A DNA stretch of 64,000 bases from Phycisphaerae bacterium (GTDB lineage Bacteria; Planctomycetota; Phycisphaerae; FEN-1346), in the NCBI GenBank assembly GCA_046483505.1, contig JAWODB010000350.1:218-64217 (forward strand). The letters run 5' to 3'. This document shows, in pieces, positions 16,234 through 61,042 of this stretch. Position 1 is the stretch's first letter; each line of letters begins with the position of its first letter. A program made the position numbers and the translations under genes. The notes below the pieces were generated by a model. It made no database searches. It was not told the DNA's origin and saw only the letters and a program-made list of their open reading frames with translations.

Positions 16234-16261
16234 GGTTCGCCTTTCGTTTTTGTCCGTGTGG

Positions 16262-18146: not shown

Positions 18147-18196
18147 CGCAGTCGGTCTTCCTTGATCATCCGCCCCGGAGGGTCGGACGGCCGGCC

Positions 18197-18586: not shown

Positions 18587-18607
18587 CGCTTCTCCTTGGT
18601 TCGATTC

Positions 18608-18780
18608 TTAACGCAGAGATCGCAGAGAGCGCAGGGGAACAACAGAGAACGGCGGAAAGAGAGATAGAAAAACGGTCAAAGCAAACGCTGTGAATCGTGC
18701 TGGATCTGCGCCTTCGGCGCACTCTAACGGCTTTGTTGTTCTCCGTCTTTCCTCTGCGCTCTCTGCGATCTCTGCGTTAA
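18608..18780. mobile_element. MITE-like 173-bp element with perfect 27-bp terminal inverted repeats
   Basis: The left end is TTAACGCAGAGATCGCAGAGAGCGCAG at 18608-18634. Its exact reverse complement lies at 18754-18780. The interior is AT-richer than the surroundings. There is no internal coding capacity beyond a 62-aa spurious ORF. Confidence 0.7.
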
Positions 18781-18792
18781 ACATTGATCCGC

Positions 18793-30958: not shown

Positions 30959-31383
30959 CGGGTTGTGTCCCTAGCCGCGCAGGGGCTCGTCCTGCCTTCT
31001 TTCCGTTGCACGTCGGGGAACGGCTGTACGTACTATCGGCAGGAGGAGCCCCCGCTCTTCACGTCCGCCGGGGAATTATGGCGCATAAATGACCAAAAGC
31101 AAACGCGTCCCCGGAATTCTGGACACCCGGTCGCTGCTGTGACATCCCCATGACACGGGCATACCGTCTGAACGATCGGGAAGGGTGTTCGGCGGGCCGC
31201 GGGCCGTCATCGGGCTACTCCCCCGCCCCAGGGGTCTCGGCGGACATCGTGGGCGCTGGGCACCCGCCCACGAGTCCGACCCCTTGTTGACGGCCCCGTC
31301 GCTGGATAGGCGAGGATGGCAGATTGTCGGTCAGCGGGCCGGAATCGCGCTGCTTATCCGGAACGCTGCCATTTGCACGTCGT

Positions 31384-46150: not shown

Positions 46151-46499
46151 GCGGCCCGGTTTGTTAAGATAGGCGGCTTGGAAATCCTGGAAAAACCTGT
46201 GAAGGCAGGTTGGGATTTGGCCGATAGTCATACCACGTCGAGAAGCCGCAAGGCGAATCGATGACAAAGGGAAATGGAAATCGGGCGTGGCAGTCGGCAG
46301 TAGCGAGGTCCGGTCCGTCGTGCCGCTGCCCGGTCATCCGCGCCGAAAAAGGAGGTGAACGGCGACGGGGCGCGGCGGACTGAGAACGGCCGCCGGTATT
46401 CGGGCGGCGAGACGATGGGCCGGACTTAATCGGAGATAGAGGGGTTTTTGAAACGAGGATTGGCCCCACCGTGGGCGACGAACGTAGAAGGAGATTACG

Positions 46500-47006
46500 G
46501 TGATGAAACGCGTGGCAACAAAAGGCTTCACCCTGGTTGAGATTCTGATCGTGGTCATCATTCTCGGTATTCTGGCGGCGATCGTCATCCCGCAGTTTAC
46601 CGAGGCCTCTGCCGAGGCGAGGGTCAGCAACCTCATGACCAACCTCCAGACCATTCGCAGCCAACTGCTGCTCTACAAGACCCAGCACCTCGAGAACTAC
46701 CCGGCCGATGCGGCGGGCGAAGGCGATGCCGAGTTCGAAGACGAGATGTGCAACTACAGCGACGAGGACGGCGTCACCCAGGCGACGCCCGACTCGGACC
46801 ATCCGTACGGCCCGTACCTGACTTCCGTGCCGATCAACCCCATGTCCAACGACAACACCGTTCGCGTGGTGCAGGACGGCGCCGCGGTGTTCGCGGCGCC
46901 GCAGGCCGACGGCGGGTGGTACTTCAACTCCGTCACCGGCGAGTTCCGCGCGGACCTGACCGACACTCACACCACGAGCGACGGCACGGCCTTGAACGAA
47001 CTGTAA
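46500..47006 (+). CDS. Type IV pilin / GspG-like major (pseudo)pilin
   Basis: 168 aa reading MMKRVATKGFTLVEILIVVIILGILAAIVIPQF (prepilin leader, G|F cleavage site, Glu5). GAAGGAG RBS upstream. A stem-loop plus T-run terminator lies downstream. Confidence 0.8.
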   Translation: MMKRVATKGFTLVEILIVVIILGILAAIVIPQFTEASAEARVSNLMTNLQTIRSQLLLYKTQHLENYPADAAGEGDAEFEDEMCNYSDEDGVTQATPDSDHPYGPYLTSVPINPMSNDNTVRVVQDGAAVFAAPQADGGWYFNSVTGEFRADLTDTHTTSDGTALNEL

Positions 47007-47068
47007 CACGCTGTGGGTGCGCAGCGGTGACCGCCAGCCTCTTCGTGTAGGGGCGAAGAGGCAGGGAA

Positions 47069-47114
47069 CCGGAGGCAGGGGCGCTTGGTGCGTCCGCTGC
47101 CTCCGGTCGTTTTA
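47069..47114 (+). terminator. Terminator downstream of the pilin gene
   Basis: A 10-bp stem CCGGAGGCAG / CTGCCTCCGG followed by TCGTTTTA. It is preceded by a second hairpin, GCCTCTTCG / CGAAGAGGC, at 47037-47062. Confidence 0.55.
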
Positions 47115-47126
47115 CAGGGCCGCACC

Positions 47127-47290
47127 CTTAGAGCCTATCCGGATAGCCCTCTGGCTTCGGCCGGCTGCGGCGGGCGCGAGCGGCGTCGGGCTGCATCGCC
47201 AACCGAGCGACGGGTTGCCTGCTTCGCCCTCCTTGCCGGCGGCCGCCTCGCTCGGCCTCGGGCCGACGAGGGGTCATCCGGATAGGCTCT
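47127..47290. repeat. Palindromic element family B, expanded copy (about 98 nt between the arms)
   Basis: The left arm at 47127-47162 and the right arm at 47261-47290 match the arms of the copy at 40448-40519. Confidence 0.8.
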
Positions 47291-47472
47291 GGGGGTCGGC
47301 GCGGTGACTGCCACCTCGGATTGCCGGAAGGACGCTGCGGGCGGACGGACGATGCCGGCACAAGCGGCAGCCGGCGGGTCCCAAGCGGCTGGAATTGGTT
47401 GGCTCCAAGTCGCCGAATGGCTGAAGCCCGGCTGGCGGCCGTGCCGATAAACGCTATGCCGTATCCCGAGAA

Positions 47473-47497
47473 CAGACGCACGGCGTCTGGTTTTTTT
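47473..47497 (+). terminator. Intrinsic terminator/attenuator 43 nt upstream of the pilus assembly operon
   Basis: Stem CAGACGC-ACG-GCGTCTG, then G and seven T residues (47491-47497). Confidence 0.55.
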
Positions 47498-47539
47498 CGG
47501 GCCATAGATGTCAAGTTAGGAAGGTTAGGAGGACTGGGA

Positions 47540-47851
47540 ATGCTCGAGCGGAGCCTCAGAAATATCGCCCACGGGCTGTTGCTGGTGGCGGCCATGCTGG
47601 CCCTCATCGCGGCCGGTCTCTGGTTTCGCGGGGCCGACCTGGAGCCCGAAGCCGTCGCGCGAGGCAAGCCCATCAGCACCAAAGACACCGGCATCCCGGA
47701 CTCCGGGCGCCAGCGGCAGATGATCGTGACGGAACTGAAGGCCGTGAACGGCCGTCTGAAGGCCATCGAGTCGGCCCTGCGCGACGGCGAGTACACGATC
47801 CAAACGAAGCCGCTGGCCGACGACGGTGCCGCGGCGGGAGGAAACCCGTGA
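47540..47851 (+). CDS. Hypothetical single-pass membrane protein
   Basis: ATG at 47540 after AGGAGGA, in ORF 47321..47851. It has one TM helix (HGLLLVAAMLALIAAGLWF) and a short coiled segment. The stop overlaps the next gene's GTG. Confidence 0.45.
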   Translation: MLERSLRNIAHGLLLVAAMLALIAAGLWFRGADLEPEAVARGKPISTKDTGIPDSGRQRQMIVTELKAVNGRLKAIESALRDGEYTIQTKPLADDGAAAGGNP

Positions 47852-48369
47852 ACGCCGACCGCGCCACAACACGCGGCGCCTTTACCCTGGTCGAACTGCT
47901 GATGGTGATCACGATTCTCATCATCGCCGCCGCCGTCGTCATTCCGAACATCGGTGCAGCGAGCGATACGCAGGCGATGAGCGCGGCCAGGATCGTGGCC
48001 GCCGACCTCGAGGTCACGCGCGACCTTGCCCTGAAGACCCAGCGGCCGCACACCATGCTCTTCAGCAGCGACTCGCAGTCTTACAAGGTGGTGTCGGACT
48101 ACGGCGGCGAGCCGTACACGTCGGCCGAAGCCATCGAGCACCCGGTCCTGGAGGGCCGCGCGTTCGAGGTCACCCTGGCCGAGCGCAACGGCATGAGCGC
48201 GGTCGTGGTGGCCAACGTTTCCTTCGGCGGCGACGCATACGTCACGTTCAACGAACTCGGCGAACCTTCCTCGTCCGGCTCGATCACGGTGGAGGCCGGC
48301 GACGTGCAGATCCGCGTGGCCGTCGCGGGCCTGACGGGAAGCGTCTCGACCATCCGGCTGGCGAACTGA
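47848..48369 (+). CDS. GspH/FimT-like minor pseudopilin
   Basis: 173 aa with GAFTLVELLMVITILIIAAAVVIPN followed by AARIVAADLEVTRDLAL, typical of the GspH family. Confidence 0.7.
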   Translation: MNADRATTRGAFTLVELLMVITILIIAAAVVIPNIGAASDTQAMSAARIVAADLEVTRDLALKTQRPHTMLFSSDSQSYKVVSDYGGEPYTSAEAIEHPVLEGRAFEVTLAERNGMSAVVVANVSFGGDAYVTFNELGEPSSSGSITVEAGDVQIRVAVAGLTGSVSTIRLAN

Positions 48370-48388
48370 CCAGGACAAGGGGCGGACG

Positions 48389-49489
48389 GTGGCCCAGTTA
48401 CCGATTGGCGTCGACATTGGAAGCACGGCGGTCCGCATGCTCCAGGTGGGCGGCAGCGAGCGCGACCTGCGCGTGGTCGACGCCGGAAAGATCGCGATGC
48501 CCCGCGAGGCCACCGACCGGCCCGAGGGCCGACGCGACGCCGTCGCCGACGCCGTCCGTCGGCTCATGAAGGAGCGGCGGTTCCGCGGCCGCGAGGCCGT
48601 CATGGCCCTCGCGCCGGAGCAGGCGTCCGTGCGGAACATCCGGATGCCCGCCATGGACGCCGCCGAACTCGACGGGGCCGTTCACTGGGAGGCCCAGAAC
48701 AAGTTTCCGTTCGACACGGCGACGGCCGTCATCCAGTACCAGCGGGCGGGGCAGGTGACCCAGGGCAACGAGGCCCTGGAGGAGATCATCGTGTTTGCGG
48801 CCCCGCGGGCGGAGGTCGATGCCGCGATCGACCTGGCGTCCGAGGCGGGACTGACCCTCGTCAGCCTCGACGCCGAGCCGTGCACCATCTTCCGCGGCTT
48901 CGAGCGGTTTCTCCAGCGGCGCGAGGACGAGGAGGTGGCCAGTGTGATCGCCGACGTCGGCGCCCGCACGAAGGTGGTGATCTCCCGCGGCCGCGAAATC
49001 GTGTTCGTGAAGACGATTCCCATCGGCGGGGCCGTCTTCAACCGGGCGGTGGCCGAATGCCTGGACCTGGAACCGGCCGAGGCCGAGGCCCTGAGGCGAC
49101 GCATCGGCGGCCGTGCCGCCGAGGGCGAGATCGACGAGCACGACCGGGCCGCCAGGGCCGTGGCCGATGCCATCCGGCCGCACCTGGAGGACCTGGCCGA
49201 CGAAATCGGCCTCTGTCTGCGGTATTACAGTGTGACGTTCCGCGCGCCCCGGCCCGAGACACTCCAGTTGACGGGCGGCGAGGCGCATAACCCGACGATC
49301 CCGGCGGCCCTCGGCAACCGCCTCGGCATGCGCGCCGAGGTAGCCGACCCGTTCCGGAGGGTCCGGACCGACCACCTCGACCCCGTCCTGGACCGGCGTG
49401 GCATCCGGGCGGAGTGGGCCACGGCGTTCGGACTGAGCCTGAAAGGTTTCCACCTGGACAGGGTGGCGTCCGGGCAATACGCGGCCTAG
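48389..49489 (+). CDS. pilM: Type IV pilus assembly protein PilM (actin-like)
   Basis: 366 aa with PIGVDIGSTAVRMLQV and an ASKHA fold pattern, followed by PilN/PilO-like genes. Confidence 0.85.
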   Translation: MAQLPIGVDIGSTAVRMLQVGGSERDLRVVDAGKIAMPREATDRPEGRRDAVADAVRRLMKERRFRGREAVMALAPEQASVRNIRMPAMDAAELDGAVHWEAQNKFPFDTATAVIQYQRAGQVTQGNEALEEIIVFAAPRAEVDAAIDLASEAGLTLVSLDAEPCTIFRGFERFLQRREDEEVASVIADVGARTKVVISRGREIVFVKTIPIGGAVFNRAVAECLDLEPAEAEALRRRIGGRAAEGEIDEHDRAARAVADAIRPHLEDLADEIGLCLRYYSVTFRAPRPETLQLTGGEAHNPTIPAALGNRLGMRAEVADPFRRVRTDHLDPVLDRRGIRAEWATAFGLSLKGFHLDRVASGQYAA

Positions 49490-49504
49490 GCGAGGAGCCC
49501 GATC

Positions 49505-50089
49505 GTGCGCGAACTCGAATTCCTCCCGGAAGAGTACCTCCGGGCCCGGTTCCAGCGGCGAATCGGGTTCATCCGGTCGTGGCTGCTGCTGGCCATCGGG
49601 CTGGCCATGGTCCTGTACAGCATGCAGATGGGCACGTGGGTCCGCGACGCGCGGGCCGAACTGCGGGCCCTTCAGGGCACGGGCACCGCCGTCAAGGGCG
49701 ATGTCGAGAAGGTTCGTCGCCTCCGCGAAGAGGCCCGGACGTACAGCGAGCGGATCGAAGTGGCCGAGGCGCTCCAGCCCCGCACCACCGTCACGGCGGT
49801 GCTGGCCGACCTCGTCGCGGCGCTGCCCGAGGCGGTGTGCGTCGAAAGGCTGGAGGTCCTCTGGCCGGCGGACGATACGGCGGAGCCCGCCACCGTCCGG
49901 CTGGAAGGGGCGGCCGGCAGCGAGAAACAGGTGACCCTGGCGGTGGCCCGTCTCGACGCGTCGCCGCGCTTCGGCCGAACGATCCTGGTCGAATCGCGCC
50001 TGGCGGAGGAGGCGCCCGCTGGCGGTCGCACGTTCGCCCTGGAGACGCGCGTCATCGGCGTGGACGCAGAGCAGGGAGAGTCGCCGTGA
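49505..50089 (+). CDS. PilN-like fimbrial assembly protein
   Basis: 194 aa with N-terminal LEFLPEEYLRARFQRR, one TM helix and a coiled region. It sits directly after pilM. Confidence 0.65.
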   Translation: MRELEFLPEEYLRARFQRRIGFIRSWLLLAIGLAMVLYSMQMGTWVRDARAELRALQGTGTAVKGDVEKVRRLREEARTYSERIEVAEALQPRTTVTAVLADLVAALPEAVCVERLEVLWPADDTAEPATVRLEGAAGSEKQVTLAVARLDASPRFGRTILVESRLAEEAPAGGRTFALETRVIGVDAEQGESP

Positions 50090-50733
50090 CGGATGCCCAA
50101 CCGACGCCCCGGCGTTTTGCGATCGACCGCCAGCAACTGCTGATCCTGCTGGTGGCCTCGGTCATGGTGGGCAGTTTCGCCCTGTTCATCCTCTGGCCGA
50201 GACACCGCGAACTGGCCGACCTCGATCACGCCGTCAGCCAGCAGCGTTGGCTGCTGAGCCAGCGGGTGGCGGCCAGCCAGGAAGGCATGCTCGTCTCGGC
50301 CCGCATCCCGGGTCTGCGGAAGGCCCAGGGCCGGATCGAGCGGTGCCTCCCGCGCGGCCCGGACGTGGCCGGTTTCCTGCAGATGATGAACGCGGCCCTG
50401 GCCGAGATGCCCGCCGTCAGCCACGAGGTCACGCGGTCCGGCGAGGCCGAGAGCGGGTCCAGGCCGTCGGTGCCGCTGTGCCTGCGCCTTCGCGGGCCGT
50501 TCGAGGAGGTCTACCGCAGCCTGGGGGCGATCGAGCGGCTGGAGCGGCTCAGCCGCTTTCGCCGCGTCCGCTTCACCCGGACCGGGGCCAACGGCGAGGT
50601 GCTGGCCGAGGCCCAACTGGTTATCTACTACCTGCCCGACGGGCAGGCCGTCGATGAATACCCGCCCCGGGGCGCGACGACGGCCGAGGCGCGACCGGAA
50701 CCCTCCAGGACACAGGAGCACCAGGCGTCATGA
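50086..50733 (+). CDS. PilO-like pilus assembly protein
   Basis: The GTG at 50086 overlaps the pilN-like stop, in frame of ORF 49414..50733. It has one TM helix, then a coiled coil and a ferredoxin-like C-terminus (LCLRLRGPFEEVYRSLGAIERL). Confidence 0.55.
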   Translation: MTDAQPTPRRFAIDRQQLLILLVASVMVGSFALFILWPRHRELADLDHAVSQQRWLLSQRVAASQEGMLVSARIPGLRKAQGRIERCLPRGPDVAGFLQMMNAALAEMPAVSHEVTRSGEAESGSRPSVPLCLRLRGPFEEVYRSLGAIERLERLSRFRRVRFTRTGANGEVLAEAQLVIYYLPDGQAVDEYPPRGATTAEARPEPSRTQEHQAS

Positions 50734-51344
50734 GTGCGGCAGCGGCATTGCGACGCATCGCGACGTTCGTCCAGACCTGGCTCGTCGGGGCCGGTGCCGG
50801 CGGCCGGCGGACGAGCCAGGGCCGGTGGCTTCACGTCGGCCTGACCGTCACGCTGCTGGCGGCCGGCGTGGCCGCCTGGGCCGTGGCGCTCATCCAGCCC
50901 TGGAAGGCGAAGGCGGCCGACCGGGGCATCGTGGCCGTCCGGGGGCAGCCGGCGCCGCAGCCGGTTCGCGAGGCGGCCGAGGAGGCTGAGCAATTGTTCG
51001 AGCCGGCGACGCCGACGGTGCTGCCCGTCCTGGCGCGGAACCCGTTCGCGACGCCCGGCCTGGCCGAGGCGACGGACGCGGCGCCCCGGCCGACGTCTGC
51101 GCCGCCGGAGGAGCCGCCTTGCCCGGGCGGCGGTGCGGCGACGGCGAAACATGTGGCCGAGACCGCGCGGGACCTGCAACTGAAAGCGACCGTCCGCTCC
51201 ACGAGGGGTGAGCGGTGGGTCGTCATTAACGACAGGGTGTATCGCGAGGGGGATGAGGTGGCCGGCCTGACCCTGGTGGAGATCGGCGAGACGTGCGCCA
51301 CGCTCCGCCGCGGCGGGGTCACCTGTGTGATCCGAATGGACTAA
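50730..51344 (+). CDS. PilP/GspC-like protein (hypothetical)
   Basis: 204 aa with one TM helix, a Pro-rich linker and a C-terminal beta domain (LQLKATVRSTRGERWVVINDRVYREGDEVAGLTLVEIGETCATL) resembling PilP/GspC HR domains. It sits between the pilO-like gene and the secretin. Confidence 0.4.
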   Translation: MSAAAALRRIATFVQTWLVGAGAGGRRTSQGRWLHVGLTVTLLAAGVAAWAVALIQPWKAKAADRGIVAVRGQPAPQPVREAAEEAEQLFEPATPTVLPVLARNPFATPGLAEATDAAPRPTSAPPEEPPCPGGGAATAKHVAETARDLQLKATVRSTRGERWVVINDRVYREGDEVAGLTLVEIGETCATLRRGGVTCVIRMD

Positions 51345-51358
51345 GGAGGGAGATCGTC

Positions 51359-53320
51359 ATGGGGACGCAGAGACCCCCACAACCCGTACACTGGTGCCGC
51401 GTGATGCTGGCGGCGGCCGTCGTGCTGGCCGCGGCTGCCGCCGTGGCGGCCGCCGAGGAAGCCGCCGAGGCGGACCCGGAGACGACGGCAGCGTCGGAGC
51501 AGCCCCCGCCCGCTGTGGGCGACGCGCCGGCCGCTGACGCCGCCGGCAAGACACAGGCGGCGCCGACGGCCGCCGGCAACATCGAACTGCACGTCAAGAA
51601 CGACGACCTCACCAACGTCCTGGAACTGCTCTCGCAGCAGTACCGGCTGAATATTGTGGCCAGCAAGGGCGCCACGGGCAAGGTGACGGCCGATCTCTAT
51701 GACGTGACGGTCGAGGAGGCGCTCGACGCCATCTGCCGGGCCGCCGACCTCGGCTGGAGGCGCGAGAACGGCGTCATCTACATCTACACCGCCCAGCAAC
51801 TCAAGGCCATGGCCGAGGACGAGTCGCGCCTCGAGACCGAGGTCTTCGAGTTGAACTGGCTTTCCGCCCAGGAGGCCGTCAACCTCCTGGACCCGCTCAA
51901 GTCGCAGCAGGGCAGCGTGACCGGCAGCCAGGATCCCGAAACGGGTATCCCCTCCGGCGCGAGCGGCGGGACGGGCGGCAACTCGCTGTGCCTCTCCGAC
52001 ACCGTCGTGGCCCGCGACTTCCCGGAGAACCTCGAGCGCATGCGCGAGGTCATCCGCAGGATGGACCGCCGGCCGCGGCAGGTCCTCGTCGAGGCCACCA
52101 TCCTCCGGGCCACGCTCAACGACAACACCAGCCTCGGCATCGACTTCAACGTGCTGGCGGGCATCGATTTCCGCGATCTCTCCGACACGAACGTCCCCAT
52201 CCGGGACGTGACGGCCAACATGGATCCCACGAACCCGGGCGCGCCCGCCATGACCGTCCCCGCCGAGCAGAAACCGTTCGGCAACGTCAGCCAGGTGGGC
52301 TTCGCCGGTCCCGGCCCGGGCTTGAACATCGGCGTCATGACTAACGGCGTCTCGCTGTTCGTCCGGGCGATGGAGGCGGTCACGGACACCACCGTCATCA
52401 GCAACCCGAAGGTCCTGGCCCTGAACAAGCAGCGGGCCGAGGTCATCGTCGGCGAACGCCTCGGGTACCTGACGACCACCGTGACCGAGACCAGCGCCAT
52501 CCAGGCGGTGGAGTTCATCGAGAGCGGCACGCAGTTGATCTTCCGGCCGTTCATCGGCGACGACGGGTACGTGCGGATGGAAATCCACCCCGAGCTCTCC
52601 TCCGGCGAAATCGTCAACGACCTGCCCCGCGAGGATACCACCGAGGTCACCTGCAACGTCATGGTCAAGGACGGGCACACCATCGTCATCGGCTGCCTGT
52701 TCGACGAGGACGTTTCGATTGCCCGCAGCCAGGTGCCCGGCCTGGGCAACATTCCGGGCCTGGGCTGGCTGTTCCGCAGCAAGACGGACCAGACCATCCG
52801 CAACGAAGTCATCATCCTCCTGACGCCGCACATCATCGAGCACGAGGAGGACGCCGCCGCCTTGGGCGAAAGCGTCATGTCCGACGTGCGCCGCCGAGCG
52901 CTCGGCATCCGCGAGGGGTTCAGTTTCTTCACCCGCGAGCGGATCACCATCGGCTACGTCCAGGCCGCTCAGGAGGCCTGGGCACGCTACCAACAGACCG
53001 GCCGCGACTCGGACCTCAACGAGGCCTGCTGGAACGTCCAGATCGCCACCGACGTGGCCCCGAACAACCTCGACGCCCTCCGCCTGAAGGACAAGGTCCT
53101 GACCGCCAAGAACGGCGAGCCCTACACGCCGCCGGACGTCACCATCTGGGACAGCATCCGCGAGCGGATGCGGATGATCGACACGGCGCGCGGCGTGGCG
53201 ATGCCCCGCAAGGCCAAGTTCCGCGTGCCCGAGAAGACGCCTCCTTCCGGCTCCCGCCCGACAGCCGACGAGACGCCCGAGACGCCCGAACAAACGAAGG
53301 AGGACCCCGATGCGAACTAA
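51359..53320 (+). CDS. Secretin (PilQ/GspD family) with C-terminal extension
   Basis: ATG at 51359 after AAGGAGGG, in ORF 51293..53320. It has a signal peptide, an STN/N0-like domain (NIELHVKNDDLTNVLELLSQQYRLNIV) and a secretin domain (QVLVEATILRATLND..LGIDF.., VPGLGNIPGLGWLFRS). Confidence 0.85.
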   Translation: MGTQRPPQPVHWCRVMLAAAVVLAAAAAVAAAEEAAEADPETTAASEQPPPAVGDAPAADAAGKTQAAPTAAGNIELHVKNDDLTNVLELLSQQYRLNIVASKGATGKVTADLYDVTVEEALDAICRAADLGWRRENGVIYIYTAQQLKAMAEDESRLETEVFELNWLSAQEAVNLLDPLKSQQGSVTGSQDPETGIPSGASGGTGGNSLCLSDTVVARDFPENLERMREVIRRMDRRPRQVLVEATILRATLNDNTSLGIDFNVLAGIDFRDLSDTNVPIRDVTANMDPTNPGAPAMTVPAEQKPFGNVSQVGFAGPGPGLNIGVMTNGVSLFVRAMEAVTDTTVISNPKVLALNKQRAEVIVGERLGYLTTTVTETSAIQAVEFIESGTQLIFRPFIGDDGYVRMEIHPELSSGEIVNDLPREDTTEVTCNVMVKDGHTIVIGCLFDEDVSIARSQVPGLGNIPGLGWLFRSKTDQTIRNEVIILLTPHIIEHEEDAAALGESVMSDVRRRALGIREGFSFFTRERITIGYVQAAQEAWARYQQTGRDSDLNEACWNVQIATDVAPNNLDALRLKDKVLTAKNGEPYTPPDVTIWDSIRERMRMIDTARGVAMPRKAKFRVPEKTPPSGSRPTADETPETPEQTKEDPDAN

Positions 53321-54422
53321 ACGATTCCTGGTCGCCGCCGCCGTCGTCGCGCTCTTCCTGGCGGCCGGATGCGACAACCACATGGCCGCCAAACGCGGCG
53401 AGGCCGAGCATCGCTGGGCGGCGTCCCGCGCCGAGATGGTCACCAACATGGCCCAGCATTCGTACGAGCGGGGCAACTTCGCCCGGGCACGCGAGCAACT
53501 CGACCCGATCATCCGGTCCGGCACCCCGTACGCCCCGGCCTACGTGCTGATGGCCCGTCTGGCGGCCGACCAGGGCGACCTGGACGAGGCCCGCAACTAC
53601 GCCTGCTCCGCCACCCAGGTGGACGGCGCCTCCGCCGAGGCCTGGTACGTCCTCGGCACGGTGGAGCAGACGCTCGGCCACCGCCAGAAGGCGCTGACCG
53701 CCTTCGGCAAGGCGGCCGGAGAGGAACCCTTCAATCCGCGCCACGTCGTGGCCGAGGCCGAGATGTTCGTCGCCATCGGCGAGGTCGAGGCCGCCGAGCG
53801 CACCCTGGCCGCCGCCTGCGACCAGATGCCCGGCAGCGCCGAGGTGCACGCCTCCTACGGCGCCGTCCTCTCGCGCCTCGGCCGATACGAGGCGGCGGCC
53901 GGCCAGTACCGGATTGCGATGCGCCTGGACCCCGAGAACATGCTCCCCAAGGAGCGTCTGGCCGTCGCCCTCTTCCGCAGCGGGGCCTACGCCGAGGCCG
54001 AGCCGATGCTGGCCGACCTCCAGCGGTCCGAGCCGGAGTTCGCCACCGGCTGGATGTGCCAGATGCGGGCCGATTGCCTCATGGCCCTGCGACGGCCGGA
54101 GCCCGCCCGGACCCTGTACGCCCGCGCGGTCGAGGCCTCGCCGAAGGCCGTTGCGCCGCGCGTCGGCCTGGCCCGGTGCGCCATCCTCGAGGACCGGCTG
54201 CCGGAAGCCCGCCGGCACCTGGAGCAGGTCCTGAAGGAAAGCCCCGGCCACACGGAGGCGAACGGCCTGCTGGGGTACGTGCTGGCGGCCACGGGTCGGC
54301 CGGCGGAGGCCGTCCCGCACCTGAAACTGCCCATGCAGGACCCGGCCTGCACGGGCCGGGAAACGATACGTCACCTTCTTGCCTGCGCGGAGGCATCGTC
54401 GGCGGTCGCACCCGCACCGTGA
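53310..54422 (+). CDS. TPR-repeat lipoprotein (PilF/PilW-like)
   Basis: 370 aa with a lipobox (LFLAAGCD) and multiple TPR units. It overlaps the secretin stop. Confidence 0.7.
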   Translation: MRTKRFLVAAAVVALFLAAGCDNHMAAKRGEAEHRWAASRAEMVTNMAQHSYERGNFARAREQLDPIIRSGTPYAPAYVLMARLAADQGDLDEARNYACSATQVDGASAEAWYVLGTVEQTLGHRQKALTAFGKAAGEEPFNPRHVVAEAEMFVAIGEVEAAERTLAAACDQMPGSAEVHASYGAVLSRLGRYEAAAGQYRIAMRLDPENMLPKERLAVALFRSGAYAEAEPMLADLQRSEPEFATGWMCQMRADCLMALRRPEPARTLYARAVEASPKAVAPRVGLARCAILEDRLPEARRHLEQVLKESPGHTEANGLLGYVLAATGRPAEAVPHLKLPMQDPACTGRETIRHLLACAEASSAVAPAP

Positions 54423-54564
54423 GGTTCACCGACAGCCCCCAACGGGGACAGGATGGGTACATGGAGGGGTAGCCGGACGCCCACGACGCGCCGTCCGGGG
54501 CCGCGCGGCCACGCGCGGCCGGGCGGCGCGCCGGCGTCCGGGCGGCCGACGGAGGTGGCCTGGC

Positions 54565-56010
54565 GTGATTGAATTGCGGCGCGTGCTGGCCGTCATTCTG
54601 CTCTTCATCGGCGTTGGATTCGGACTCCATCTGCTGCTGGACCCCGTGCGCGACGCCGGCCGCAGCGCCGCCGACAAGGCCTTGATCCTGGGGGCCGGCA
54701 TGGCCCTGGCCGTCCTCGGAACCATTGGCGGGTACCTCATCGCCCGCATTCCCAAAGAGCGGATCGGAAACGTCGCCGACCACCTCGAGACCCTTGTCCG
54801 GCGCGGCACGGTGGGCATGGCGGTGGGCGAGGCGGATGCCGATGCCCTCGGCCGCCTCGGACACGCCATCAACCGGTACCTGGCCTTCGTCAAGGACGAG
54901 GTCGAGCAGTCGCGCATGGCCATCAAGGAACGCCAGATCCAGGTCAAGGTCCTGGAGGCGGAGAAGCGGCACATCGAGGCCGTCATCCATGCCATCAGCG
55001 ACGGCGTTCTGGTGATGGACGCCTTCGGCGACCTCGTGCTGACGAACGAGGCGGCGAAGACCATCTTCGGGTTCCAGTTCGAGCCCGGCCGGCGCATGCC
55101 CATCGAGGAAGCCATCGCCGACGAGCCGTTCCTGGCCCTGCTCCGCGAGATGCAGGACCAGGGTTCCTTCGTGCCGCACCGGACCGCCGAGTGGGTCCAG
55201 GGCGAGGGCGACGAGGCACGCGCCTACCGCGTCATCCTGAACACGGTCTTCGAGGGGCCGAAACGCGAACGGGTCAGCGGTGTCGTGGCCGTCCTTCACG
55301 ACGTGACCCGCGAGAGGGAAATCGCGCGGACCAAGAGCGACTTCGTCTCGTCCGTTTCCCACGAACTGAAGGCCCCCGTCGCCAGCATCCGCGCCTACGC
55401 CGAGATGCTCGTCGACGGTGAAACGTCCGGACCGGAGGAGGCCCGCGAGTTCCTGAACATCATCGTGGCCGAGACGGAACGCCTCGGCCGCCTCATCGAG
55501 AAGGTGCTCAACCTCAGCCGGCTGGAATCGGGTCTCATCCCGGCCAACAAGACGGACCTGGCGGTGACCGAACTGCTCCGCGAGGTGGCGGAAGTCGTCT
55601 CGCCGCAAGCCGCCGAGAAACGCATCCGCCTGGAGGCGGACCTGGCGCCCGTCTTCTTCCGGGTGCACGGCGACCGCGACATGCTGTACCAGGCGATCCT
55701 CAACGTGGTCTCCAACGCCGTCAAGTACACGGAGGAGGCGGGGCGCGTGTCCATCTCGACCTACCTGGCGGACGGCTCCGTCGTGGTCGACGTGGCCGAT
55801 ACCGGTGTCGGCATCGCCCCCGAGGAACTGGACCGGGTGTTCGAGAAGTTCTACCGCTCGAAACGGTCGGCGCAAAGCGCCGGCGGCACGGGACTGGGTC
55901 TCCCGCTGGTCAAACACATTGTCGAGACGATCCACGGGGGACGCGTGGCGGTCGAAAGCGAGGTCGGCAGGGGGTCGGTGTTCCGGCTGTACCTGCCGGC
56001 GGTTCGCTGA
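54565..56010 (+). CDS. Membrane sensor histidine kinase (2TM-HAMP-PAS-HisKA-HATPase)
   Basis: GTG at 54565 after GGAGGTGG, in ORF 54379..56010. H-box FVSSVSHELKAPV, N-box LNVVSNAVKY, G-boxes DTGVGI and GTGLGL. Confidence 0.85.
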   Translation: MIELRRVLAVILLFIGVGFGLHLLLDPVRDAGRSAADKALILGAGMALAVLGTIGGYLIARIPKERIGNVADHLETLVRRGTVGMAVGEADADALGRLGHAINRYLAFVKDEVEQSRMAIKERQIQVKVLEAEKRHIEAVIHAISDGVLVMDAFGDLVLTNEAAKTIFGFQFEPGRRMPIEEAIADEPFLALLREMQDQGSFVPHRTAEWVQGEGDEARAYRVILNTVFEGPKRERVSGVVAVLHDVTREREIARTKSDFVSSVSHELKAPVASIRAYAEMLVDGETSGPEEAREFLNIIVAETERLGRLIEKVLNLSRLESGLIPANKTDLAVTELLREVAEVVSPQAAEKRIRLEADLAPVFFRVHGDRDMLYQAILNVVSNAVKYTEEAGRVSISTYLADGSVVVDVADTGVGIAPEELDRVFEKFYRSKRSAQSAGGTGLGLPLVKHIVETIHGGRVAVESEVGRGSVFRLYLPAVR

Positions 56011-56033
56011 CGCCGCCGAAGGAGAGGTACCCG

Positions 56034-56411
56034 ATGGCCTGGAAGGTTCTCGTGGCCGACGACGAGCCATGCATCACGACCATCGTCTCGAAGAAACTCC
56101 GCAACGCGGGGTTCGAGGTTTGCGTGGCAAGGGACGGGCAGGAGGCCTTCGACATGGCCCTGGCCGAGCGCCCGGACTTCCTCGTGACCGACCTCCAGAT
56201 GCCGCTGATGAGCGGCCTGGAACTCGTCGCCCGCCTGACGGCCGAACTGGACGACCCCGTTCCCGCGCTGCTGCTGACGGCCAAGGGATTCGAACTGGAG
56301 AACGAGAGCCTCGACGCGCTGCCCATCTTGATGGTCATGACGAAACCCTTCAGCCCCCGCGAACTGCTCGACAACGTCCGCGAGGCCCTGGGCGCCGCCG
56401 CCCCGACCTGA
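56034..56411 (+). CDS. Single-domain response regulator (CheY-like receiver)
   Basis: 125 aa with VLVADDE, phospho-acceptor context LVTDLQMP, LLLTAKG and MTKPF. Confidence 0.9.
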   Translation: MAWKVLVADDEPCITTIVSKKLRNAGFEVCVARDGQEAFDMALAERPDFLVTDLQMPLMSGLELVARLTAELDDPVPALLLTAKGFELENESLDALPILMVMTKPFSPRELLDNVREALGAAAPT

Positions 56412-56419
56412 GGCAACGG

Positions 56420-57958
56420 ATGATTTCGCCCTCGTCAACGTGTCCGCCGAAGCCGGCCCTCGCCATCCCGGACGGGCTGGTGGACGCGCTGCGCGACCGG
56501 ACGGGCGTGGCGGTCCGTTTCTTCGACGCCGACGGCGCCCCGCTGCCCGCCGGCGACGGCGCGGACGCCGCCGGAACCGCGCCGGACCCTTCCCACGGCG
56601 AACCGCTTGCCCGAGTGGTGAGGGAGGCCGTCGAGGCCGGCGAAGACCGGGTCGAGCCCACCCCGGACGGCCTGGCGGCGGCGTGGCCGATACGGCAGCA
56701 CGGCCGGCCGGCGGTCGTGGCCGCCGCCGTCCTGACGGACGTCGGTCCCGGCGAGGCGTCGGTGGGGCGGCGGTTGCTGGCGGGCGTCGGCGAGGCCGTC
56801 CGCGCGCGGTTCGCCCTGGCCGAGGCCGCCAACCAGTGCGATTCCCTCTCCGGGGCGCTGGCCCAGAGTTTCGAAGAGATCACCCTGCTGCACAACGTGG
56901 GCGAGATTCTGCGGGTCACGCGGCCCATTCCGGGGCTGCTGGAGTACGTGTGTTCGGAATTGCGCGAGACGACGGGCGCCGAGGCCGCCGCCGCCTGCCT
57001 GCCCGACGAGGACGGTGGCGAGCCGCTCCTCGTCACGGCGGGCGAACCCCCCGTGGCCGAGGCCGACCTGCCGGGCCTCCTGGCCGACCTTCTGGACGGG
57101 GCGCAGGGGTCGGCCGCCATCATCAACTACTGTCAGCAGGAGCCGGCCCTGGCGCGGCTGTCGGGGGCGCTCGAGCGGGTGGCCGTCGTCCCGCTGCCCC
57201 TCGGCGAGGGGGACGTCGGCGCGGTCGCGATCTTCAACCGGCCGCGCATGGAGTTCGGCAGCCCCGACGTCAAACTCGTGCGGTCCAGCGCCAACGCGAC
57301 GGCCGTCTTCATCGAGAACCGCCGCCTCTTCCGCGACCTCCACACCATGATGCTCGACCTGGTGCGGGCGCTGGTCTCGAGCGTCGACGCCAAGGACCCG
57401 TACACGTGCGGCCACAGCGAGCGGGTCGCCATCCTGTGCCGCGAACTGGCCCGCGAACTCGGCCTCACCGACGAGGAAATCGAGCAGGCCTACATGGCGG
57501 GCCTGCTGCACGACATCGGCAAGATTGGGACGCCGGAGGCGATCCTCCGCAAGGAGGGGGCGCTGCGGCCCGAGGAACGGCGGGTCATCGGCGAACACCC
57601 GAGTATCGGCGGCCACATCCTGGAGGGCATCAAGCAGTTGCAGGAGGTCCGCGAGGCCGTCGTCCATCATCACGAGCGGCTCGACGGCTCCGGGTACCCG
57701 CAGGGGGTCTCGGGTGACGACCTCCCGATGCTGGCCCGCATCGTCGGCCTCGCAGACTCGTTCGACGCGATGACGAGCACGCGGCCGTACCGCGAGATGA
57801 TGCCCCTGGAGGCGGTCGAGCGGGAAATCGAGCGGCACACGGGCTCGCAGTTCGATCCCCAAGTGGCGGAGGCGTTCAAGCGGATCGACAAGCAGAACCT
57901 GATGGAGCAGTTCGCCGCCCATCCACGCTCCGCCTGTACGGCGGATGCCGGGAGGTAA
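56420..57958 (+). CDS. GAF-domain HD-GYP phosphodiesterase (c-di-GMP-specific family)
   Basis: ATG at 56420 in ORF 55805..57958. About 150 aa of N-terminal sequence is unassigned, followed by a GAF-like region. HD-GYP motifs: GHSERVA, LLHDIGKIG, HHERLDGSGYP. Confidence 0.85.
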   Translation: MISPSSTCPPKPALAIPDGLVDALRDRTGVAVRFFDADGAPLPAGDGADAAGTAPDPSHGEPLARVVREAVEAGEDRVEPTPDGLAAAWPIRQHGRPAVVAAAVLTDVGPGEASVGRRLLAGVGEAVRARFALAEAANQCDSLSGALAQSFEEITLLHNVGEILRVTRPIPGLLEYVCSELRETTGAEAAAACLPDEDGGEPLLVTAGEPPVAEADLPGLLADLLDGAQGSAAIINYCQQEPALARLSGALERVAVVPLPLGEGDVGAVAIFNRPRMEFGSPDVKLVRSSANATAVFIENRRLFRDLHTMMLDLVRALVSSVDAKDPYTCGHSERVAILCRELARELGLTDEEIEQAYMAGLLHDIGKIGTPEAILRKEGALRPEERRVIGEHPSIGGHILEGIKQLQEVREAVVHHHERLDGSGYPQGVSGDDLPMLARIVGLADSFDAMTSTRPYREMMPLEAVEREIERHTGSQFDPQVAEAFKRIDKQNLMEQFAAHPRSACTADAGR

Positions 57959-57963
57959 CTCGC

Positions 57964-58299
57964 ATGGCGACGACGGCGGATGCCTACGGCAGCATGATGG
58001 TCCTGTCGGTGGAGCCGGCGCTGACGGCGCGGGAGGGCAACGACTTCCGCGACGTCGCCGGCGAGCAGATTCGTTCGGGGGCCCGCTGGTTTATTCTCGA
58101 CCTGTCGGGCGTCGGCTACTTCGACAGTGCGGGCCTGGAAACCCTCGCCTGGTTCCAGGACCAGATGGAGGCGTCGGGCGGCGACGCGAAGGTGGCCGGC
58201 CTCAAGGGGCTGGCCCGCCAGACGTTCGAGATCGTCCGCTTCGACAGGAAGTTCGAGGTCTACGACTCCGTGCACGAGGCCGTCAAAAGTTTCCATTGA
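57964..58299 (+). CDS. STAS-domain protein (anti-sigma-factor-antagonist family)
   Basis: 111 aa with FILDLSGVGYFDSAGLETL, including the conserved phosphorylatable Ser context (DSAG). Confidence 0.8.
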   Translation: MATTADAYGSMMVLSVEPALTAREGNDFRDVAGEQIRSGARWFILDLSGVGYFDSAGLETLAWFQDQMEASGGDAKVAGLKGLARQTFEIVRFDRKFEVYDSVHEAVKSFH

Positions 58300-58396
58300 C
58301 CGGTCCGGCGGGGGGACGGCGGCGCCGCGGCCCACGGGCATACCCCGGGCCGCACGCGCCGCCGGGCCGGTCGGCTTGGAACGGGTGAAACCGGTT

Positions 58397-60157
58397 ATGA
58401 CAGCGACCAACGAAACCCCGCGGCGGGCCCGGCTGGGCGATCTGCTCATCGCCCGCCAGGCCATCAACCACGACCAACTCCAGCACGCGCTGGAGGTGCA
58501 GCAGAACGGCCAGCAGGACCGGCTCGTCGGCGAAATCCTCGTCGACCTCGGCTACGCCACCCAGGAGCAGGTCCTCTCGGCCGTCGCGGAGGCCTGCGGC
58601 GTGCCGTTCGTCCGGCTTGTGCCGCAACTCGTCGACCCGGCCGTCCGCGGGGTCCTCCCGGCCGCATTCATCCAGAAGCACTGCGTGCTGCCGCTCTTCC
58701 GCGTTCGCGACGTGTTGACCGTGGCGGTCTCGGAGCCGTCGAACGTCTTCCTGGTGGACGAGATCGCCCACGCGGCCGGTCTCAGCGTCCAGGTGGTGGC
58801 CGCCACGGCGGACAACATCTACCGGATGCTGGACGAAACGCGACCGGACGGCAAAGAGGTGGCCCAGGTCGTGGACGAGCCCGGCCTCGGCGTCTCGGTG
58901 GCCGACGACAGTCTGCTGCCGGACGACTACGAGACGATGTACGGCAACTGGCCGGCCGAGAAGGTGGCCGGCCTGCTCATCCGCGAGGCGGTCCGCGCCC
59001 GGGCGACGGCCATCCACCTGGAGCCGGACGAAAAGGTGCTGCGAATCCGGTTCCGGATCGACGGCGTGCTGCACGTGGTGATGCGTCCGCCCGCCCGCCT
59101 GGCCGAAAGGCTCGCCGCCGCCTTTCACGAGATGCTGGGCGCCACGACGGCATCCGCCAAGGTGCCGGACTACCACCGCAGCGCGCGGCTCCTGGTGCAG
59201 GGCCGGCCGGTCCAGTTGCACGTGACGGGGTTGGGCGGGGCGTTCGGCCGGCGGACCGTCATCCGCCTGGTCTGCGAGGAGGACGCCCAGAAACCCCTCG
59301 AGAAACTCGGGGCCGACTTCCGCCTCCTGGACGACTACCGCGACCTCCTCGCCGAGCCCCGCGGGCTCATCCTCCTGGCCGGGCCCCGCGAGAGCGGCGT
59401 CACAACCACCCTCTACAGCACCATCGGGGCGCTGGACCCGATTCGCCTCAACGTCTGCACGTTCGAGTCGGCCGTGACGTTCGCCATGCCGGGAGTCAAT
59501 CAGTTTTCGCCGGCCACCTGCGGGGAGCGGGACGCCGCCAGAGTGCTGCGCCGTCTGCTTTACCAGCAGCCGGACGTCCTGGCGCTGGACGGGACGCTGG
59601 ACGGGGCGGTGGCGCCGTGGGTGCTCGAAGCCGCCCTGGACGGCTGCCTGGTCGTGGCGGACCTCCGCGGCCGCGACGCCGCCGACGCCGTCGCGCGGCT
59701 GGCGAGCCAGGTGTCACCGGACCTGTTGGCCAAGGCGCTGCGGGGGGTGATGGCGCAGCGGCTGGTCCGGACGGTGTGCCTCCACTGCCGCACCAGCCAC
59801 GAGCCGTCGGCGGCCCTGCGGCGGCGCGTCGGGGAGGCCTTCGGCTCGGTCGAGGAATACGTCAAGGGACGGGGCTGCTCGAACTGCTACCAGACGGGCT
59901 TCTACGGCCGCATCGGCCTGTACGAACTCGTCACGTTCGATACGGCCCTCGCCGAGACCGTCCGCCGCAACGAGGGGGTGGAAGTGCTGCGGCGGGCGTT
60001 CGCCGAGGACGACCGGCCGACGATCTGGCGCGACGGGATCAACAAGGTCCGGGCGGGGATCACGTCGCTGGAGGAGGTGATGCGGGTCCTGGCGGGATGT
60101 CCGGGCGGGCTGCATGCGCCGCAGGCGACGGCCGAGGTGTTTTCGCGCGCCGAATGA
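58397..60157 (+). CDS. PilB/GspE-family protein with degenerate ATPase motifs (predicted pseudo-ATPase)
   Basis: ATG at 58397 in ORF 58127..60157, 586 aa. The T2SSE_N-like N-terminus reads RLGDLLIARQAINHDQLQHALEVQ..RLVGEILVDLGYATQEQVLSAVAE. The core aligns to GspE (IHLEPDEKVLRIRFRIDGVL; AQRLVRTVCLHC..CSNC). Walker A is GPRESGVTT, the Asp box is TFESAV, Walker B is VLALDGTLD and the His box is LVVADLRGRDA. Confidence 0.8.
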   Translation: MTATNETPRRARLGDLLIARQAINHDQLQHALEVQQNGQQDRLVGEILVDLGYATQEQVLSAVAEACGVPFVRLVPQLVDPAVRGVLPAAFIQKHCVLPLFRVRDVLTVAVSEPSNVFLVDEIAHAAGLSVQVVAATADNIYRMLDETRPDGKEVAQVVDEPGLGVSVADDSLLPDDYETMYGNWPAEKVAGLLIREAVRARATAIHLEPDEKVLRIRFRIDGVLHVVMRPPARLAERLAAAFHEMLGATTASAKVPDYHRSARLLVQGRPVQLHVTGLGGAFGRRTVIRLVCEEDAQKPLEKLGADFRLLDDYRDLLAEPRGLILLAGPRESGVTTTLYSTIGALDPIRLNVCTFESAVTFAMPGVNQFSPATCGERDAARVLRRLLYQQPDVLALDGTLDGAVAPWVLEAALDGCLVVADLRGRDAADAVARLASQVSPDLLAKALRGVMAQRLVRTVCLHCRTSHEPSAALRRRVGEAFGSVEEYVKGRGCSNCYQTGFYGRIGLYELVTFDTALAETVRRNEGVEVLRRAFAEDDRPTIWRDGINKVRAGITSLEEVMRVLAGCPGGLHAPQATAEVFSRAE

Positions 60158-60178: not shown

Positions 60179-61042
60179 CTACCGTCCGCCGAGTTGGTTG
60201 ATCTTGTTCTGGATCTTCTGGCGCTCTTTCTGGTGCTTCTTGTCGTTCGGGATGTGATCCAGCATGCCCCGGTAAATCGTCAGAGCGGCCCGCGCATTGC
60301 CGGTCTTGACGTGCAGATCGGCCACCTTCTCGGCGAGTTTCTTGTCCTTGTACCGTTCCTTGGGTTTCTTGGCCTCGAAGATCTTGTTGTAAAAGGTGAG
60401 GGCGGCTTTCAGGTTGCCGGCCTTGGCGGAGAGTTCGGCCAGGGTCTTGTGGAGTTCCTCGTTCTTGTCCCGCTCCTTCTCGGGGGTCATGGCGTAGACC
60501 TGGAGATAGGCCTGGAGCGCCTGCCGGGGTTCGGCCGCCTTCTCGTAAAACTGGGCGATCTTCTCGACGTTGGCCAGATGCTTGGCCTGGACGCGTGCCG
60601 CCGTCTGGTCGATCATGGCCTGGACCGGTTTCGGGGCTTGGTCCTGCTTCTTCTGGAGGACCTGGACCTGCTTCAGGAGCGGCAGGAGCCGGCGATCGAA
60701 CTGCTGGACCTTCCGGGCCGAGGCGACGAGGACGGCCTTGTACTTCATCAGGGCGGTTGACCGTTTGCCCTCCTGGAGGTGCTTGGTGGCTTTGCCGGGG
60801 TCCTCCAGGCCCTTCTGCGCCTGCTGCTGGGCCTGCTGGATCTTCATCGTCAGGTCGAATTCCTGCGTCTGCAGGTTCATCATCTGCCGGTTGATCTGAT
60901 CGAGTTGCTTCTCGAACTCCTCGGCGTCGTCCTTATCGTCCCGCGAGTAGGCCAGGGTGGCCGCGGGTGCCGCGACCAGCGCGAGCGCCACCATGAGCGC
61001 CTTCGACACCCGGATGGCGGGGACTTCCGCTTCGTGCCGCAT
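60179..61042 (-). CDS. Secreted Lys/Gln-rich helical-repeat (TPR-like) hypothetical protein
   Basis: 287 aa with a signal peptide (ALMVALALVAAPAATLAYS) and K/Q/E-rich helices (ALQAYLQVYAM.., AALTFYNKIF.., AALTIYRGML). The region is visibly less GC-rich than its neighbours. Confidence 0.6.
   Translation of the reverse strand: MRHEAEVPAIRVSKALMVALALVAAPAATLAYSRDDKDDAEEFEKQLDQINRQMMNLQTQEFDLTMKIQQAQQQAQKGLEDPGKATKHLQEGKRSTALMKYKAVLVASARKVQQFDRRLLPLLKQVQVLQKKQDQAPKPVQAMIDQTAARVQAKHLANVEKIAQFYEKAAEPRQALQAYLQVYAMTPEKERDKNEELHKTLAELSAKAGNLKAALTFYNKIFEAKKPKERYKDKKLAEKVADLHVKTGNARAALTIYRGMLDHIPNDKKHQKERQKIQNKINQLGGR

Follow-up and report, generated by a model that had tools for sequence, protein, structure and literature searches.

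Can a type IV pilus locus serve its purpose when the only assembly ATPase it encodes has lost its catalytic residues, and what are signalling genes doing in the midst of such a locus? The question is raised by a gene cluster in a 64-kb stretch of DNA from a Phycisphaerae bacterium (contig JAWODB010000350.1, positions 218 to 64,217 of the forward strand), the whole of which is called 'the window' below. A preliminary description, made from the sequence alone, saw there a type IV pilus or type II secretion system (T2SS)-like assembly cluster joined to a histidine kinase, a receiver, an HD-GYP protein, a STAS protein and a dead PilB-like protein. On balance, the answer towards which we lean is that an uncultured Phycisphaerae clade has here its principal type IVa pilus locus, and that the signalling cassette of this locus, together with a PilB-like protein turned sensor, controls a motor encoded elsewhere in the genome.

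The G+C content of the window is about 70%, which makes lists of open reading frames (ORFs) noisy; frames were therefore chosen by their third-position G+C (GC3). After this selection, one clear series of 14 genes with coding-type GC3 was apparent on the forward strand, spanning 46503-60157. Scans with Pfam and NCBIfam confirmed their identities almost item by item, as follows.

46503..47006, + strand: major pilin (N_methyl)
47540..47851, + strand: small protein of 103 aa with one transmembrane segment (no Pfam or NCBIfam family)
47848..48369, + strand: GspH/FimU-like minor pilin (GspH, N_methyl)
48389..49489, + strand: PilM (PilM_2, TIGR01175)
49505..50089, + strand: PilN (Pfam PilN)
50086..50733, + strand: PilO-like protein (by position and alignment to the PilO of locus L013; profile models silent)
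50730..51344, + strand: PilP/GspC-HR-like protein (T2SSB, weak GspC_delta)
51359..53320, + strand: secretin (STN, Secretin_N, Secretin)
53310..54422, + strand: tetratricopeptide repeat (TPR) lipoprotein (TPR families), overlapping the secretin gene
54565..56010, + strand: histidine kinase (PAS, HisKA, HATPase_c)
56034..56411, + strand: receiver-only (CheY-like) response regulator (Response_reg)
56420..57958, + strand: GAF/HD-GYP protein (GAF_2, HD_5)
57964..58299, + strand: STAS protein (STAS)
58397..60157, + strand: PilB-like protein, below 'pseudo-PilB' (MshEN, T2SSE)

The 14 co-directional genes of the preliminary description are thus borne out, with the kinase start placed at about 54565 and not at 54379. 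Their tight spacing was only partly recovered: most gaps measure -11 to +23 bp, the exceptions being 533 bp after the pilin gene, 142 bp before the kinase gene and 97 bp before the PilB-like gene. When the PilB, PilT and PilC proteins of relatives were compared with the window by tblastn, the PilB-like gene was the sole match; with the domain scans, this agrees with the earlier statement that the cluster holds no active PilB, PilC, PilD or PilT, and the Pfam GspH and N_methyl content agrees with the presence of a single minor pilin. The next gene downstream, at 60179-61042, is indeed on the opposite strand and convergent, and the remainder of the window, judged from translations, consists of housekeeping genes.

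The PilB-like protein had been described as dead, and its motifs concur. Walker A reads GPRESGVTT instead of the canonical GPTGSGKST, Walker B reads LDGTLD instead of GEIRD, and the His box reads LRGRDA instead of LHTNDA, so that Walker A is without its lysine, Walker B without its glutamate and the His box without its histidine; the Asp box is degenerate too. These changes are common to all 20 PilB-like locus sequences of the window's own Phycisphaerae clade, designated 'class A' and sampled here as about 15 distinct related loci from metagenomes and metagenome-assembled genomes (MAGs), as well as to a wider family of about 87 clusters. Across this family, Walker A is GPR(E/A)(S/A)G(V/L/A/T)TT, the Asp box is E(S/A), and the Walker B glutamate and His-box histidine are gone; four cysteines and both MshEN motifs are retained throughout. 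The clusters came from a search of 5.8 billion proteins, are 56-87% identical and are labelled Phycisphaerae or Planctomycetes MAGs; beyond them, identity falls sharply to 38-40%, with canonical PilB and GspE proteins. In a profile search of 1.84 billion representatives, the family fell into one 50%-identity cluster that reached 1016 bits; 532 bits was the best score of any other full-length protein.

On the PilB model TIGR02538 the protein scores 304 (cut-off 676), it does not carry the intact motifs of an extension ATPase, and it scores equally on PilB and GspE models. Among solved structures it is nearest to Geobacter PilB (E 5e-84), a match to which an AlphaFold model of moderate confidence (mean predicted local distance difference test score, pLDDT, 70.7) adds nothing. 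The ratio of nonsynonymous to synonymous substitution rates (dN/dS) of the gene against two close relatives is 0.13-0.14, as low as for the kinase, STAS and pilin genes, and compares with 0.23 for birA. By these features, the protein is a conserved, catalytically dead pseudo-ATPase.

Its N-domain tells a different part of the story. Residues 12-65 score 46.4 on NF053729, the NCBIfam model of the c-di-GMP motif (cut-off 38), Pfam MshEN also matches, and the domain aligns with the MshE N-domain structure 5htl (E 5e-12) and with the corresponding domains of PilB from Geobacter and Myxococcus. Control of PilB-type ATPases by cyclic diguanylate (c-di-GMP) via MshEN is established (PMC11731258, PMC11656802), and the motif has been defined as of the RLGxxLLxxGLLxxxxLxxxLxxQ type (PMC11731258). 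Pseudo-PilB carries the two tandem 24-residue c-di-GMP-binding motifs of such a receptor, with one deviation (Q for glycine). The position in question belongs to motif I (58430-58501, residues 12-35), where the window and its closest relatives have Q, E or R (ARQAIN, AREAIT, ARRAIT); this could alter c-di-GMP affinity in the window's sub-lineage. We conclude from the motifs that pseudo-PilB probably works as a c-di-GMP signal sensor.

The genes that would produce the signal look functional, as judged from their residues. The kinase has two transmembrane segments joined by a short loop, then a coiled coil, PAS, HisKA and HATPase domains; it carries SHELKAP, with intact H, N and G boxes. No other protein of the block is as well conserved (88-93% identity with near relatives and 67-71% with far ones, dN/dS 0.11-0.16), and its nearest curated families, PnpS, WalK and PhoR, are all below cut-off. 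In the receiver (Response_reg, E 1.3e-19), the acidic pocket DDE, the acceptor Asp in the conserved TDLQMP, the Thr and the Lys are intact, so that both proteins have the sequence features of a two-component pair; from the adjacency of their genes we infer phosphotransfer from kinase to receiver. The GAF/HD-GYP protein (HD_5 E 2.7e-41, GAF_2) retains all HD metal-binding and GYP residues, and the motifs GHSERV, LLHDIGKIG, HHHERxDGxGYP and LADxFDAMTSxRPYR are invariant in its orthologues, as is HHHERLDGSGYP; it is a probable c-di-GMP phosphodiesterase on these residues. The STAS protein (E 5e-13) is a single domain of the anti-sigma-antagonist type with a conserved DSxGLE serine and a dN/dS of 0.12-0.15; in class A, in the deeper class B introduced below and in other loci, its gene immediately precedes that of the PilB-like protein. 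It stands alone: no RsbW/SpoIIAB-type kinase and no PP2C phosphatase was found in the cluster or in the related loci examined, and the earlier term 'partner-switch module' is therefore not retained. A small protein encoded 16 kb from the cluster (30521-30970, - strand) has a weak match to TIGR02266 (E 1e-5, below cut-off), which we take to be a PilZ-related family; it is thus a possible further c-di-GMP receptor.

The preliminary description had proposed a comparison of synteny as a check on its reading. In about 15 class A loci, the block is kept gene for gene, in the same order wherever the locus is long enough, and in all relatives the signalling genes adjoin those for the pilus; the refuting outcome named in that description, signalling genes not conserved beside the pilus genes, was thus not observed. 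Three family members (87%, 61% and 57% identity) show PilM, PilN, PilO, the PilP-like protein, secretin, TPR lipoprotein, kinase, receiver, HD-GYP, STAS and pseudo-PilB, followed by a convergent gene and rplU. In loci that reach upstream, as seen in secretin-alignment scans, birA, the pilin, the small transmembrane protein and the GspH-like gene stand in front, so that the conserved class A unit extends from birA to rplU. This gene order is not due to chance. The convergent gene (60179-61042, - strand), present between pseudo-PilB and rplU in most class A loci, encodes a lysine-rich secreted protein with weak TPR matches and occupies the position that PilC has in class B. Two further secretin loci, one beside SecA (L010) and one from Omnitrophica (L011), were discarded as unrelated.

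The cassette is not a peculiarity of this cluster. The order secretin, TPR lipoprotein, histidine kinase, CheY-like receiver, GAF/HD-GYP, STAS, PilB is found again in a deeper Phycisphaerae group, designated 'class B', whose secretins are 37-46% identical to those of class A; dozens of loci across both groups share it. Three canonical PilBs taken from the matches at 38-40% identity were all found in cassette order, followed by PilC (L013 and L014, of Tepidisphaeraceae type) or by PilT and PilC (L015). The arrangement of cassette and canonical PilB, then PilC or PilT-PilC, was seen in L013, L014, L015, L045, L047, L065 and L081, the PilT-type retraction ATPase being present in L015 and L065. 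In the metagenome census the class B form was found many times, with canonical ATPase motifs in 12 sequences. PilC, with or without PilT before it, usually comes next after the active PilB and is absent downstream of it in 3 class B loci, which indicates that the platform gene is not always linked. From this distribution, the signalling cassette is best described as an old and constant component of pilus loci in Phycisphaerae, placed between the secretin/pilotin pair and the motor.

Class B also differs in its upstream part, where two pilin paralogues and three pilin-like ORFs precede the small transmembrane protein and the GspH-like gene; five or six pilin-like genes are present in these loci, as a set resembling G/H/I/J/K. 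At L047 (2204-5855), five consecutive pilin-like ORFs were recorded before these two genes: the major pilin, whose first 30 or so mature residues are the same as in the window pilin, a paralogue, and three proteins resembling minor pilins (392 aa in one case). A tblastn search of the class A spacer between the pilin gene and gene 2 found no remnants of the three lost minor pilins.

Decay of the cassette-linked PilB is not restricted to class A, since partly degenerate copies exist in L012/P0122, L068 and L080. At L080, the degenerate copy is accompanied, about 6 kb upstream of the secretin and on the opposite strand, by a module of histidine kinase, STAS, active PilB and PilC, which indicates that a live PilB can occur beside a dead one; the live one belongs to a different PilB branch in a neighbour-joining tree. 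The two modules lie at 560-5802 (- strand) and 9833-19333 (+ strand), and L070 is listed with the same two-module arrangement. In the tree, all degenerate PilBs form one clade inside the cassette-linked PilBs, with class A as the most decayed tip, a placement to which long-branch attraction may contribute. Compared with class B, class A represents a reduced, derived state, in which minor pilins were lost, the locus has no platform gene and the motor became a pseudo-enzyme.

The large gap after the pilin gene contains non-coding elements, as follows.

47009..47063, + strand: ultra-conserved non-coding core of 55 nt with two hairpins, in the pilin 3' untranslated region (UTR) (16/16 class A loci)
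47069..47113, + strand: intrinsic terminator hairpin and T-run, ending the pilin transcript (RNAalifold)
47415..47499, + strand: conserved boxes resembling a promoter, GAATGGCTGAAG ... GCCGATAA (class A spacer alignment), then a leader hairpin and T-run (terminator scan), ahead of gene 2

Approximately the first 100 nt past the pilin stop codon are 81-100% identical across all class A loci, whose proteins are 45-90% identical. The 55-nt core occurs once per locus, at the same place and on the same strand, with 0-3 mismatches, and its second hairpin shows one compensatory pair change. A covariance model of the core matched only class A loci, including the window once, and none of class B, where extra pilin genes occupy the corresponding place. 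Rfam, searched up to E 5 over the 533-bp gap, gave noise only and no family for the core, and a riboswitch or other known RNA in this gap was rejected on that ground. The obvious idea is a protein-binding or sRNA-like 3' UTR element. The terminator helix that follows has seven pairs with compensatory changes, ends in a T-run, and varies freely in sequence between loci. Upstream of gene 2, the promoter-like boxes and the leader hairpin (47473-47499 in the terminator scan) suggest a separate, possibly attenuated, transcription start for the operon from gene 2 to the PilB-like gene.

The window sequence is present in freshwater sediment metagenomes, and salt-lake metatranscriptomes contain exact contigs over 46432-47030, that is, the pilin, at a depth of 18-84. 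The rest of the cluster is covered at a depth of about 1-3 by scattered pieces (the GspH/PilM junction, the secretin and the 3' end of pseudo-PilB); contig depth is a crude measure, and pieces of such low depth could be DNA carry-over. This pattern fits an abundant monocistronic pilin mRNA that ends at the terminator just downstream. In wetland and soil metatranscriptomes, contigs extend from the 3' end of the pilin gene across the 55-nt core, which is unchanged in them; their coding parts differ by 10-15% or so.

How, then, could such a locus operate? If its components behave as their families do, the PAS kinase would sense a cytoplasmic or membrane cue and phosphorylate the receiver, which in turn, directly or via the GAF domain, would tune the HD-GYP phosphodiesterase and hence the local c-di-GMP level. 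The MshEN domain of pseudo-PilB would read this level, and the protein, with STAS as a partner, might dock at the PilM ring or the cytoplasmic base; once docked, it would license or block assembly by active PilB, PilC and PilD proteins whose genes lie at another place in the genome. In class B, c-di-GMP would bear directly on the motor; in class A, its effect would pass through a protein that only senses and would reach a motor in trans.

Several observations weigh against this reading, which we nonetheless place slightly ahead. Neither the 64-kb window nor the sequence up to 10 kb away from any class A locus showed an active PilB, PilC, PilD or PilT. In the window copy, MshEN motif I reads ARQAIN, with Q in place of the conserved glycine of the ARGVIT found in most of the family, and AlphaFold gives the N-domain of pseudo-PilB a low confidence (pLDDT 50-67). 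Beyond the pilin, transcript evidence amounts to a few low-depth contigs. Finally, the three further minor-pilin genes kept by class B are gone from class A, so the machine may be non-canonical or partly disabled.

The reading that best survives beside it takes these losses at face value: the protein turned from motor to sensor, together with a STAS partner and the local kinase/CheY/HD-GYP circuit, would gate a pilus that has shed its platform gene and its priming minor pilins, with the 55-nt RNA as a further layer of control. In the extreme form there would be no other PilB or PilC at all and the fibre would be non-canonical. We regard this as perhaps one chance in a small handful.

Somewhat less probable still is that pseudo-PilB is structural, serving beneath PilM as a ring or spacer that needs no nucleotide, or joining an active PilB in mixed hexamers, with the signalling genes acting elsewhere, on pilin expression or on another PilB. 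Retention of the full PilB fold, of the zinc-site cysteines and of the N2 and C-terminal domains would fit such a role, as would the deviation of the window copy at one conserved MshEN position. CheY-like regulators that act directly on PilB also have precedents, in Synechocystis PixG/PixE and P. aeruginosa PilG/PilH. Yet the MshEN motifs are nearer to the consensus in the pseudo-ATPases than in the active class B orthologues (RLGDLL, nearly invariant, compared to mostly PLGQLL), and the HD-GYP gene always lies two genes upstream.

An unlikely, though not negligible, proposal is that the apparatus is T2SS-like, with a periplasmic pseudopilus that pushes cargo through the secretin, and it has to be weighed against the structural half of the locus. 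The major pilin has a class III leader (G/A|F-x-x-x-E) in MKRVATKG|FTLVEIL, followed by a hydrophobic N-terminal helix; N_methyl (E 1.4e-6) and TIGR02532 are above cut-off, and identity among class A loci is 67-90% (dN/dS 0.14). Its N-terminus is nearest to the GspG, PilA and ComGC models, all below cut-off, GspG being best (53 bits). The small transmembrane protein is bitopic, with a GIPDSGRQR motif and a coiled coil, and has orthologues in all class A loci; a profile of these matches a small ORF just upstream of the class B GspH-like gene (E 1e-7 to 6e-12), which marks the protein, by homology, as an ancestral companion of the GspH-like gene. The GspH-like minor pilin itself matches Pfam GspH (E 2.1e-6) and N_methyl, with TIGR01708 below cut-off.

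Next come the alignment proteins. PilM, the actin-like protein of the cytoplasmic ring, matches PilM_2 (E 2e-37) and reaches 142.8 on TIGR01175 (cut-off 133), and is the only member of the PilM/N/O/P-like, secretin and TPR set to attain a curated family cut-off. PilN matches its Pfam family (E 4.5e-8). The PilO-like protein matched no Pfam or NCBIfam profile, and a Protein Data Bank profile search with its alignment was empty as well; it sits between PilN and PilP and can be aligned over its full length to the PilO of L013, itself a PF04350 match (25% identity, E 9e-8). The assignment of the PilP/GspC-like protein is based on its C-terminal domain (T2SSB, E 7e-8; GspC_delta below cut-off). By this combination of curated model, Pfam match, position, alignment and C-terminal domain, the four members of a PilM-PilN-PilO-PilP alignment complex are in place. 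The secretin (Secretin E 2.5e-37, STN, Secretin_N) has a conserved C-terminal extension of about 150 aa and scores 218.7 on the PilQ model TIGR02515, below the cut-off of 284; PilQ is nonetheless its best-scoring secretin model. The TPR lipoprotein, with a signal peptide ending in LAAGC, is below cut-off on the PilW and Tgl models; its gene lies directly 3' of the secretin gene in essentially all 80 census loci, and it is a probable secretin pilotin of the PilF/PilW/Tgl type.

The GspG-like N-terminus, the GspH-type gene 3, the GspC_delta and GspB-type matches of gene 7, the equal scores of pseudo-PilB on PilB and GspE, and the G/H/I/J/K-like pilin set of class B would all suit a T2SS. On the other hand, the GspD, GspE, GspG, GspH and GspC models are all below their curated cut-offs, PilM, PilN and PilO occupy the place of GspL and GspM, and GspF is absent from the window by tblastn. 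The pilin is also expressed far above the other genes, which is usual for major pilins. With PilM/N/O present, PilQ as the best secretin model and PilT in relatives, the structural half is better identified, on sequence grounds, as the alignment and secretin set of a type IVa pilus than as a T2SS, so that only the first part of the label 'type IV pilus/T2SS-like' is kept. At this locus the type IVa system is incomplete, since active PilB, PilC, PilD and PilT are not there.

Could the class A locus be a decaying relic, whose remaining genes are becoming pseudogenes? What is missing, namely the ATPase motifs, PilC and the I/J/K-like minor pilins, concerns three separate functions by which a filament is started and extended. 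Nevertheless, no frameshift or stop was found in about 15 distinct class A loci with proteins at 45-90% identity, and dN/dS is 0.11-0.5 for every gene, being lowest in the kinase, STAS, pseudo-PilB and pilin genes. The pilin is strongly transcribed and the class A-specific 55-nt element is almost unchanged. Selection and expression data thus largely refute this reading, to which we give very little credence. Least credible of all, and already contradicted by synteny, is that the signalling genes are independent neighbours functionally untied to the pilus genes: the gaps of 142 and 97 bp and the generic family of the kinase would allow it, but the order from secretin to PilB is kept in two deep groups, and terminator-like sites between gene 2 and the end of pseudo-PilB gave only weak matches, no commoner than expected by chance.

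What is known of the control of type IV pili by c-di-GMP is mainly proteobacterial and involves the active motor or FimX/PilZ. What is added here is a whole sensing circuit inside the pilus locus of a poorly studied class. Loci that otherwise match, with an active or a dead PilB, constitute a natural experiment on N-domain sensing as against the motor role, and the 55-nt element of the pilin 3' UTR would, if confirmed, be a new RNA motif. Sediments, soils and salt lakes commonly harbour Phycisphaerae, and since the pilin is visibly expressed there, the system probably matters for attachment in these habitats. Literature searches on pseudo-PilB, on HD-GYP/STAS/PilB clusters and on pilus regulation in Planctomycetota did not find the arrangement described.

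Among known systems, the structural genes are closest to the type IVa pilMNOPQ sets with a TPR pilotin (PilMNOPQ and PilF in P. aeruginosa, PilMNOPQ and Tgl in M. xanthus, PilW in Neisseria). Shared features are the PilM/N/O/P-like order followed by the secretin, a secretin-tied TPR lipoprotein, a separate and highly expressed major pilin gene, and motor genes that may sit at other loci. In P. aeruginosa, pilBCD, pilTU and pilMNOPQ are at separate loci, and a pilMNOPQ set without motor genes is ordinary in type IVa systems. The window differs from these models on several counts: PilM alone attains a curated cut-off, the secretin and TPR genes overlap, the minor pilin is single, and a small bitopic protein and a five-gene signalling/PilB-like unit are added.

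The signalling genes recall HD-GYP two-component systems such as RpfC/RpfG of Xanthomonas and PA4781 and PA4108 of P. aeruginosa, which have pilus function among their outputs. Another is PdeK/PdeR of X. oryzae, cited as a pilus-affecting HD-GYP system (PMC11656802). All couple a kinase and a receiver to c-di-GMP hydrolysis; in those systems receiver and HD-GYP form one protein, whereas in the window the receiver stands alone, the HD-GYP protein carries a GAF domain, and the genes lie inside the pilus locus. The STAS protein, with its single domain and DSxGLE serine, resembles those of partner switches (RsbV/RsbW, SpoIIAA/AB, HsbR/HsbA of P. aeruginosa, SypE/SypA of V. fischeri) and differs in having neither switch kinase nor PP2C phosphatase beside it. 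HsbA is a precedent for a STAS protein that feeds into c-di-GMP and motility control.

Pseudo-PilB shares its N-terminal tandem 24-residue motifs with the MshEN ATPases (MshE of V. cholerae, PilB of M. xanthus, PilF of T. thermophilus). Those proteins are active motors; having lost the Walker A lysine, Walker B glutamate and His-box histidine, pseudo-PilB cannot be a protein in which c-di-GMP acts by tuning its own ATPase. Degenerate enzymes are used as c-di-GMP receptors elsewhere, as in LapD and PelD. FimX is the pilus case of such a reader (PMC11656802) and, like pseudo-PilB in the reading we favour, is a dead member of an enzyme family kept to control pilus assembly at the motor. The difference is that FimX belongs, in degenerate form, to the GGDEF-EAL proteins and exerts its effect on PilB by way of PilZ, whereas here the dead enzyme is PilB itself.

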